Of a stretch of 64,000 nucleotides of DNA, positions 13,561 to 13,658 are shown piece by piece; positions within the stretch are counted from its first letter, which is position 1, and every line of letters begins with the position of its first letter. Source of the stretch: Escherichia phage PhiR41_1. A program made the position numbers and the translations under genes. The stretch lies in the sequence record PV340561; one strand, written 5' to 3'. Under the pieces are notes generated by a model that did not search any database, was not told the origin of the DNA, and was given only the letters and a program-made list of their open reading frames with translations.

Positions 13561-13658
13561 TCTGGGAGCTTATTTTAAAGACCTGCTTCTGTATATAAAT
13601 AATAAATAACTTATTAAATATATATACAGAAGCAGGCTTAATAAGACATGCCCAGACC
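13561..13658. repeat. 98-bp near-perfect palindrome with AT-rich centre (copy A; core 13584-13636)
   Basis: outer arms GGTCTGGG/CCCAGACC, inner arms CTGCTTCTGTATATA/TATATACAGAAGCAG; second copy at 43115-43169. Confidence 0.6.

Follow-up and report, generated by a model that had tools for sequence, protein, structure and literature searches.

Genes and palindromes at the two sites

The DNA analysed here, called the window, is a stretch of 64,000 nucleotides from Escherichia phage PhiR41_1 (sequence record PV340561), and nucleotide comparison identifies it as part of an SSU5-type phage-plasmid, with 98% identity to Escherichia phage CMS-2020a and 97-98% to Cyrano (pLF82); Salmonella phage SSU5 and Klebsiella relatives follow at about 80%. 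It was at two gene-module boundaries of this window where an earlier note, made from the sequence alone, had described a large AT-centred palindrome in two copies, one just before the packaging module and the other between the partition and replication modules, and the gene context agrees with this placement. Copy A is flanked on its left by an 88-aa ORF (13290-13556), the last member of a conserved block encoding ParB_N, ParB_N, an ABC ATPase, a 296-aa and the 88-aa protein, and on its right by terS/terL; copy B is flanked on its left by the ParA region and on its right by a 246/249-aa ORF followed by DnaB-type helicase and primase genes. Palindrome A starts 2 nt past the stop codon of the 88-aa ORF and ends 95 nt before terS (13754), on the upstream side of which its core lies at a distance of 118 nt. 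ParA is found 1.3-2 kb left of B and the two ParB_N genes 2-3 kb left of A, and the geometry of the palindromes is unlike that of 16-bp parS sites; beyond this proximity, nothing supports the centromere among the roles listed in the earlier note. The 88-aa, terS-like and 249-aa flanking proteins gave no informative match in sequence searches of Pfam, PDB and PHROGs.

A co-oriented gene lies directly upstream of A (the 88-aa ORF) and, in SSU5 and Cyrano, also of B. In the window, B does not stand right behind a co-oriented gene, because the ORF adjoining it on the left (42232-42999) is on the minus strand. This 255-aa ORF carries a LEM-3-like GIY-YIG nuclease domain (PF22945, E 5.6e-07) and is lineage-specific cargo at the hypervariable left side of B, missing there in SSU5 and Cyrano. 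The ORF right of B is listed from a GTG at 43277, and its Cyrano and SSU5 homologues begin at an ATG that matches 43286, which has an AGGTGAG ribosome-binding site ahead.

Each copy consists of a core with 16-nt arms around a 23-nt AT-only centre (A, 13582-13636; B, 43115-43169), and the arms of B differ by one C for T. Both copies of the core of about 55 bp announced by the earlier note are therefore real, the one at B exactly as given there, and the one at A beginning at 13582 instead of 13584. The outer arms described around A also exist; the supposed near-perfect 98-bp palindrome is in fact 100 nt long, starting 2 nt further left, and imperfect, with internal loops. Palindromes of the GTCT-AGAC type are indeed present beside B, namely GTCTAAGAC at 43091-43099 and GTCTTTTAAAAGAC at 43169-43182. 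The features are collected in the table.

Table. Palindrome features of copies A and B in the window
Feature	Coordinates	Strand	Basis
Extended imperfect palindrome A, 100 nt	13559..13658		RNA and DNA folds
Outer left arm of A, GGTCTGGG	13559..13566		Pairs with 13651-13658 in folds
Core left arm of A, CCTGCTTCTGTATATA	13582..13597		Exact match; near-invariant in 75/75 terS-anchored loci
AT-only centre of A, inner palindrome AATAA-C-TTATT	13598..13620		Column identity 0.79-0.86
Core right arm of A, TATATACAGAAGCAGG	13621..13636		Arm pattern match
Outer right arm of A, CCCAGACC	13651..13658		Pairs with GGTCTGGG in folds
Extended hairpin B, outer pairing TTCTGG 43083-43088 / CCAGAA 43187-43192	43083..43192		Folds
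Core left arm of B, CCTGCTTCCGTATATA	43115..43130		Arm pattern match
AT-only centre of B, inner palindrome TAAGT-A-ACTTA	43131..43153		Read directly
Core right arm of B, TATATACAGAAGCAGG	43154..43169		Arm pattern match
U-tract TCTTTT right behind hairpin B	43170..43175	+	T-rich tail in 77/78 unbiased loci

The fold of A has 8 + 6 + 3 + 16 + 6 = 39 pairs with internal loops between them, an RNA folding energy of -47 kcal/mol (z -10.2 against shuffled sequences) and a DNA fold z of -8.4; for B, the outer pairing of which is weaker, the RNA values are -33.5 to -37.7 kcal/mol (z -5.1 to -6.5 against shuffled sequences) and the DNA z is -6.5. The outer arms of A are kept in most lineages, with two compensatory positions. 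Matches to the arms with up to 3 mismatches number 5 in the 64-kb window against 0.65 expected, a count reached in 0 of 100 shuffles, and the four core arms are the only good ones among them. A repeat finder reports one direct match of 33 nt (97%) and one inverted match of 68 nt (87%). Neither palindrome is flagged by simple scans for terminators and promoters, the limits of which on loop and stem are too tight for it, and at A they returned only weak AT-rich promoter-like hexamers at chance level; a search of the whole window against Rfam 15 gave no match at gathering score.

Two likenesses of the arms to known sites were considered and rejected. Some copies contain LexA half-sites (CTGTATAT), which the C variant CCGTATAT breaks and whose spacing is wrong by eye; and the resemblance of the arm (ACTATGGGAGC) to T7/SP6-type promoters fails on the orientation of the solo arms described below, no single-subunit RNA polymerase being annotated in the SSU5 record.

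Three fixed sites in a clade of phage-plasmids

The element that the earlier note took to be duplicated is present twice in the window and a third time outside it in complete relatives, where the search of related phages that the note had proposed located site C after the N6-adenine methyltransferase gene. In SSU5, the copies lie at 33458-33513 (site B), at 78304-78360 (site C) and across the linear record ends (site A), and in CMS-2020a at 28806, 61526 and 91622. A scan of IMG/VR with a two-arm pattern, with sites assigned by flank BLAST, yielded at least 153 instances; among the matches listed, 52 are at A, 60 at B and 41 at C, so that every listed instance is at one of the three sites. Given that such a scan presupposes the arms, the loci were resampled by way of the flanking proteins. 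The palindrome was then found at site A in all 75 loci anchored on terS (49 distinct sequences, terS 86-100% identical) and at site B in all 78 usable loci anchored on the ORF to its right, 104-123 nt upstream of that ORF. The arm columns of the 75 terS-anchored loci have an identity of about 0.96, against 0.4-0.7 in the neighbouring intergenic columns, and in both samples the arms are more conserved than the adjoining coding DNA. The gaps that hold the palindrome measure about 200 nt, and it invariably stands at their upstream end; in SSU5, it starts 23-28 nt past a stop codon.

A further scan with one genome per species recovered the element in Kluyvera, in Buttiauxella and in a 108-kb Yersinia pestis contig, at A or B only, and the clade with three fixed sites spans Escherichia, Salmonella, Klebsiella, Kluyvera, Buttiauxella and Yersinia. 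The absence from syntenic positions in related genomes by which the earlier note proposed to judge its element is thus contradicted by its presence in all close relatives. The element is both real and strongly conserved, and no description of it was found within the searchable literature on SSU5, pHCM2, pMT1, phage-plasmids and palindromes.

Palindromic form, and the tyrosine recombinase annotated in relatives, could point to a target of site-specific recombination (by a tyrosine recombinase or XerCD) or of a protelomerase, and a resolution site was among the roles listed in the earlier note. We find this hardly credible, given that no rearranged junction or inversion, for instance the left side of A joined to the right side of B, occurs among the 153 IMG/VR matches listed, and that three such copies in one circle would yield deletions. 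Sites of the lox/dif/res type have arms of 11-13 bp around a 6-8-bp spacer, and the arms studied here are at least 23 nt apart, which is unfit for the core site of a tyrosine recombinase. As for a protelomerase, the records of the relatives are circular and no such enzyme is annotated in them.

The idea that A and B are still evolving in concert inside the clade of the window was considered as well and rejected: over 20 distinct A/B combinations, the edit distance is 6.90 within the same genome and 7.19 across genomes, a difference that is not significant (1661 of 20000 permutations reach the observed value). Covariation of the three sites appears only when the deep lineages (type 1, Klebsiella clade 2, Moellerella) are compared with one another.

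On its left side, B forms a cargo joint. This side is hypervariable, with 33 distinct left flanks, and the homology of the window to SSU5 and to CMS-2020a SCU-175 begins at the left edge of the B core. The outer left partner TCTGG is kept in 20 of these 33 flanks against 5% by chance, and therefore the outer stem of B is favoured but dispensable.

More distant relatives and the arm motif

In relatives with a terS only 53-63% identical, the gene order around A is the same and the gap holds a hairpin of another sequence, in several cases with long T-runs. At site A, loci L301 and L302 have GCCTGATTCTGTAT..CAGGC followed by a T8 run, locus L303 has both arms altered, with CCAAT/ATTGG replacing GTATA/TATAC, Moellerella has GTTCCCAT..ATGGGAAC around about 95 nt of AT-rich DNA, and a second K. 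pneumoniae type has a short GC hairpin. In Klebsiella clade 2 (K. michiganensis, K. pneumoniae pFF979_1), all three sites are occupied by ordinary terminators made of a GC hairpin and a U-tract, the stems of which differ between B and C by a compensatory GC to AT change, and the three gaps have the motif ATATATAG(G)AGCCAGGC in common. Position and hairpin are hence the family-wide constants, and therefore termination is the simplest common function.

The sister clade with plain terminators also bears on whether the palindromes are sites of DNA processing or replication, that is, a pac or cos site for terminase at A, or a lytic origin with an AT-rich unwinding element at B. Their places ahead of terS and ahead of the ORF, DnaB and primase genes would suit such roles, the SSU5 record is linearised inside A, and an AT centre between inverted arms, in three copies, resembles herpesvirus origins: the three oriS/oriL copies in a genome of HSV are palindromes around an AT centre, with inverted initiator boxes on either side, and share with the element their overall geometry and copy number. 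Unlike what this analogy would suggest, the skew around the element is flat, and Klebsiella clade 2 does with ordinary terminators in its place. Cumulative GC/AT skew in SSU5 and Moellerella has no inflection at the three sites, which is a weak test because nearly all genes are co-oriented. Three cos copies would cut the genome into three pieces, and the nearest solved relatives of TerL, P74-26 and T4 gp17, indicate no packaging type. The record ends of SSU5 (JQ965645; L007/L009) and Cyrano were rejected as physical genome ends, since contigs L313 and L326 end inside B and the Cyrano start was re-linearised to match SSU5; because a three-copy palindrome breaks assemblies, these ends are best taken as assembly breaks and not as virion termini. 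The pac-associated site entertained in the earlier note loses with them its one hint, there being three copies and an ordinary reason for the SSU5 record to start in A, and we hold a processing or replication site to be highly improbable.

The arms themselves extend further than the palindromes. A motif RCCT-N-GCTC-Y..TA followed by AT-rich DNA gives a gap-free arm alignment, in one orientation, over all the lineages (E. coli, Salmonella, Klebsiella, Xenorhabdus and Moellerella), the surrounding intergenic DNA of which is unalignable. Within each lineage, the three sites share their arms: CCTGCTTCYGTATA in type 1, CCTAGCTCCCATA in Moellerella and GCCTGGCTCCTATA in Klebsiella clade 2. In Moellerella pW1-b, AT-centred palindromes with arms CCTAGCTCCCATA / TATGGGAGCTAGG stand at all three sites, and Moellerella has at least 7 intergenic copies in all, including solo arms without a pairing partner at 12535, 38852 and 64217, two of which are just behind ordinary terminators. 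Klebsiella clade 2 also has solo arms, at B as well as at C on the left-hand side. Relative to the genes, the motif has no fixed orientation. An exact 17-mer of the Moellerella arm, ACTTATGGGAGCTAGGC, is found inside the nrdA coding sequence of NZ_CP093257 (L308) at 87724-87740.

The Moellerella copies, paired and solo, would fit a selfish or otherwise dispersed palindromic repeat (REP, MITE or PeSL-like) that formerly spread among intergenic sites and survives as a relic with no dedicated function, mainly through being harmless past stop codons and promoting recombination; the mosaic joint on the left of B and the free reassortment of A and B centre variants among genomes agree with it. REPs have been associated in the literature with protection of mRNA 3' ends, termination and protein binding, and REP/BIME elements resemble ours in being imperfect palindromes past stop codons, repeated within a replicon and, in Moellerella, both solo and paired. 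They differ from ours in other respects: the window's element has three syntenic copies fixed in the window's clade over six genera, an unrelated consensus, an AT-rich centre, and no RAYT-type or other cognate transposase annotated. A relic would hardly be present in 75/75 loci at A and 78/78 at B with arms that outconserve their coding neighbours and a conserved U-tract at B, and no target-site duplications were seen by eye. We consider it very unlikely, and the small non-autonomous repeat of the earlier note finds no support as a mobile element in the clade, where the copies, among the matches listed, hold three fixed syntenic positions.

The arm motif argues better for a cis site at the DNA level, in which the arms would be bound by a sequence-specific phage or host protein, either as duplex or as an extruded cruciform, for whose extrusion an AT-only centre between GC clamps is favourable. 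Candidate roles would be control of the promoters found 40-80 nt downstream, by a regulator or an architectural protein, a topological-domain boundary, or loading of the two ParB_N proteins encoded upstream of A, with termination at B being a secondary use of the same hairpin. What speaks for such a site is the gap-free alignment of RCCT-N-GCTC-Y over genera in which nearby intergenic DNA does not align, the solo arms of Moellerella and Klebsiella clade 2, the unfixed orientation relative to genes, and the lineage-specific arms common to three sites. Against it, searches of the flanking proteins gave no candidate binder, and the spacing of the inverted arms varies from 23 to about 95 nt, which is ill-suited to one rigid oligomer. 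In addition, the inner hairpins of Klebsiella clade 2 vary among sites and resemble plain terminators, and a stem selected for its structure also evolves slowly, so that arm invariance within the clade is indecisive.

Evidence from RNA

Transcript data bear on site B. In RNA-seq of the LF82 lysogen, the genes CYRAN_28, CYRAN_29 and CYRAN_30 have values of 49.8, 89.1 and 54.6, and CYRAN_31, the first gene across palindrome B in Cyrano, has 6.2 (PMC9928086, S1 Table), with a background median of 9.8 in the table and a step from 10.42 to 2.56 across B in one log2 column (PMC9928086). This is a drop of about 9-fold, and of up to about 2^8 in some conditions, in gene-level values from the lysogen of a relative of the window. 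In gap B of Cyrano, the palindrome is the only strong hairpin, with a 25-bp stem, -42.4 kcal/mol and z -8.9, followed by UUUU, and we infer that this hairpin is what brings the values down. At A and C, the genes on either side are silent in the lysogen, and the gene-level RNA-seq therefore bears on B only. Elsewhere in Cyrano (OV696614), CYRAN_43 (723x background) and the 45-aa CYRAN_81 (117x), the latter just downstream of site C, are very highly expressed in the LF82 lysogen (PMC9928086, S1 Table) and may be small regulatory genes or RNAs.

The tail behind B is T-rich in 77 of the 78 loci despite its varying sequence (GTCTTTTAAAAG, GTCTTTTTCTAT and others), and that behind site C of the relatives is mostly T-rich; behind A there is no U-tract (GCTTAATAAG, GTTCTGAATA). 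At site A, 23 of 28 variants give a better fold for the gene-strand RNA than for its antisense, and wobble cells number 14 in favour of the gene strand vs 4. The strand bias is nevertheless inconsistent between sites, with A on the gene strand, B mixed and C leaning to antisense, and neither the counts of G.U versus C.A nor the plus and minus fold energies gave a consistent one-strand RNA signature over the three sites. Covariation is thin as well, with a compensatory change in only 3 of 24 pairs and arm substitutions that are mostly uncompensated singles.

The inconsistent strand signature, and the preservation of A in spite of having no U-tract, are further points for a DNA-level site. We keep it as a serious rival because of the U-tract missing from A, the thin covariation, the arm motif and the solo arms, even if, taken as the main function, we regard it as unlikely.

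A proposed terminator or insulator at module boundaries

The explanation that we tentatively prefer, at a confidence just short of even, is that the palindromes act at the RNA level as terminator or insulator hairpins at module boundaries, and also mark a cargo-exchange joint at the left of B. Each cassette sits between two transcription modules, right behind the final gene of the one and about 100-120 nt ahead of the first gene of the other, and the gene-strand transcript of the DNA palindrome would fold into an RNA hairpin of 25-45 bp. At B, the hairpin with its immediate U-tract would make a strong intrinsic terminator which, in the lysogen, would keep partition-operon transcripts out of the repressed lytic replication genes; at C, to judge by its sequence, termination is probable too. 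The 3' half of the outer stem lies past the U-tract, and because of this only read-through transcripts would complete the longer hairpin, as in lambda tI/sib. Conserved arms, shared by genomes that have diverged elsewhere, would also make the cassettes into joints for the exchange of neighbouring modules and cargo, most clearly on the left of B. Among the roles listed in the earlier note, termination is thus the best supported one, unidirectional instead of bidirectional, however, and demonstrable only at B (and, from its tail and hairpin, at C).

The roles of A and C are inferred throughout. Having no U-tract, A would more likely be an element of RNA processing, stability or pausing, and the actual stop ahead of terS would be a separate conserved GC hairpin with a U-run. 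The latter is found on the plus strand at 13714-13745, where the hairpin TAGAGCGCATGGACGCGCTCTG is followed by TGTGTTTTAG, 8 nt ahead of the terS start region; it is kept in every lineage examined, with compensatory stem changes from gagcGc/gCgctc to gagcAc/gTgctc, and resembles a leader terminator or an attenuator belonging to the late operon; in that role, it would imply late control of the antitermination type.

The likeness to intrinsic terminators consists of the hairpin and gene-strand U-tract (at B and mostly at C), the place past a stop codon ahead of the next promoter region, the gene-level drop in RNA across B in Cyrano, and the ordinary terminators that hold the same three sites in Klebsiella clade 2. 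In contrast, usual terminators have 5-14 GC-rich pairs, and our element has a stem of 25-45 pairs, an apex that is AT-only and spans 23-95 nt, arms conserved across genera and common to the three sites, no U-tract at A, and an outer stem that encloses the U-tract. A centre of this kind, AT-rich and 23 to about 95 nt long, suits an intrinsic terminator poorly, and the cross-genus arm motif and the solo arms are not explained by stem stability alone.

Other models are found among nested or long phage hairpins. In the lambda tI/sib retroregulator, the terminator forms the inner part of a longer RNase III hairpin, and T7 has, in its early RNase III sites R1-R5, several similar long hairpins at gene-module junctions. 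Our element resembles the former in that the 3' half of its outer stem lies past the U-tract, and as far as geometry goes, both the length of the double-stranded RNA (at least about 20 bp) and the completion of the outer stem in read-through RNA only are those of a sib-type element; it resembles the latter in placing several long hairpins at module junctions of one phage. Unlike the sib and T7 R sites, to which it has no sequence similarity, its outer arm is missing in 13 of the 33 left-flank variants at B. With the PeSL cassettes of T4-type phages and the lambdoid linkers, the element shares stem-loops at module boundaries that form mosaic joints with cargo turnover; unlike PeSL cassettes, it shows no movement within the clade and no promoter consensus was shown inside it.

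A more far-reaching reading, which we consider quite unlikely, is that a putative family-wide factor binds or extrudes the three palindromes and so divides the circle of about 105 kb into three domains, one with virion and lysis genes, one with replication and nucleotide metabolism, and one with regulation. The ParB_N pair, or the small DNA-binding proteins always encoded by site A, may be candidates for this factor.

Other repeated elements of the window

Several other repeated elements were noticed in the window. Intergenic 13-bp palindromes AAACAA-N-TTGTTT, often with AGA ahead, occur at 455, 939, 1844, 2609, 13676, 13701, 41104, 44038 and 56651, with two of them separating A from terS and a single one ahead of parA and of the DnaB helicase gene each; a global regulator probably uses this family as operators or promoter elements. 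An operator-like motif TAAGT-N4-ACTTA is found exactly at 10351, 17147, 21738 and 58810 and with 1 mismatch at 1345, 28232, 35034, 38130 and 43259, mostly in the region of virion genes, with one copy between B and the ORF before the helicase; a motif of this type also precedes a tail gene of Moellerella pW1-b. The centre TAAGT-A-ACTTA of B was considered as a member of this family and treated as unrelated, its spacing being different. GC-rich hairpins with T-runs (AAAGCGCCCATAGTGGGCGCT..) at 3710-3744 and 4210-4240 are near-copies 496 nt apart, and therefore the genome also uses conventional terminators, some of them duplicated. Finally, families of direct repeats with periods of 21, 42, 99 and 189 nt, in-frame-looking and probably in a tail-fibre-like gene, occupy 33660-36120.

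Significance for SSU5-type phage-plasmids

Clinical Enterobacterales commonly harbour SSU5-type phage-plasmids, on which resistance and toxin cargo travels. The palindrome is a compact typing marker for these elements, and its three copies break short-read assemblies, which accounts for the arbitrary ends of the SSU5 reference record. A fixed triad of boundaries would help to explain how maintenance genes are kept on and lytic genes off in a lysogen where nearly all genes are co-oriented, and would show the entry point of new cargo at the hypervariable left side of B. If the family-wide factor exists, it would couple the insulation of transcription to chromosome organisation, partition or packaging, and the arms and the factor would co-evolve between lineages; in that case, with the arm motif binding such a factor, the palindromes would point to a new layer of phage-plasmid genome organisation.
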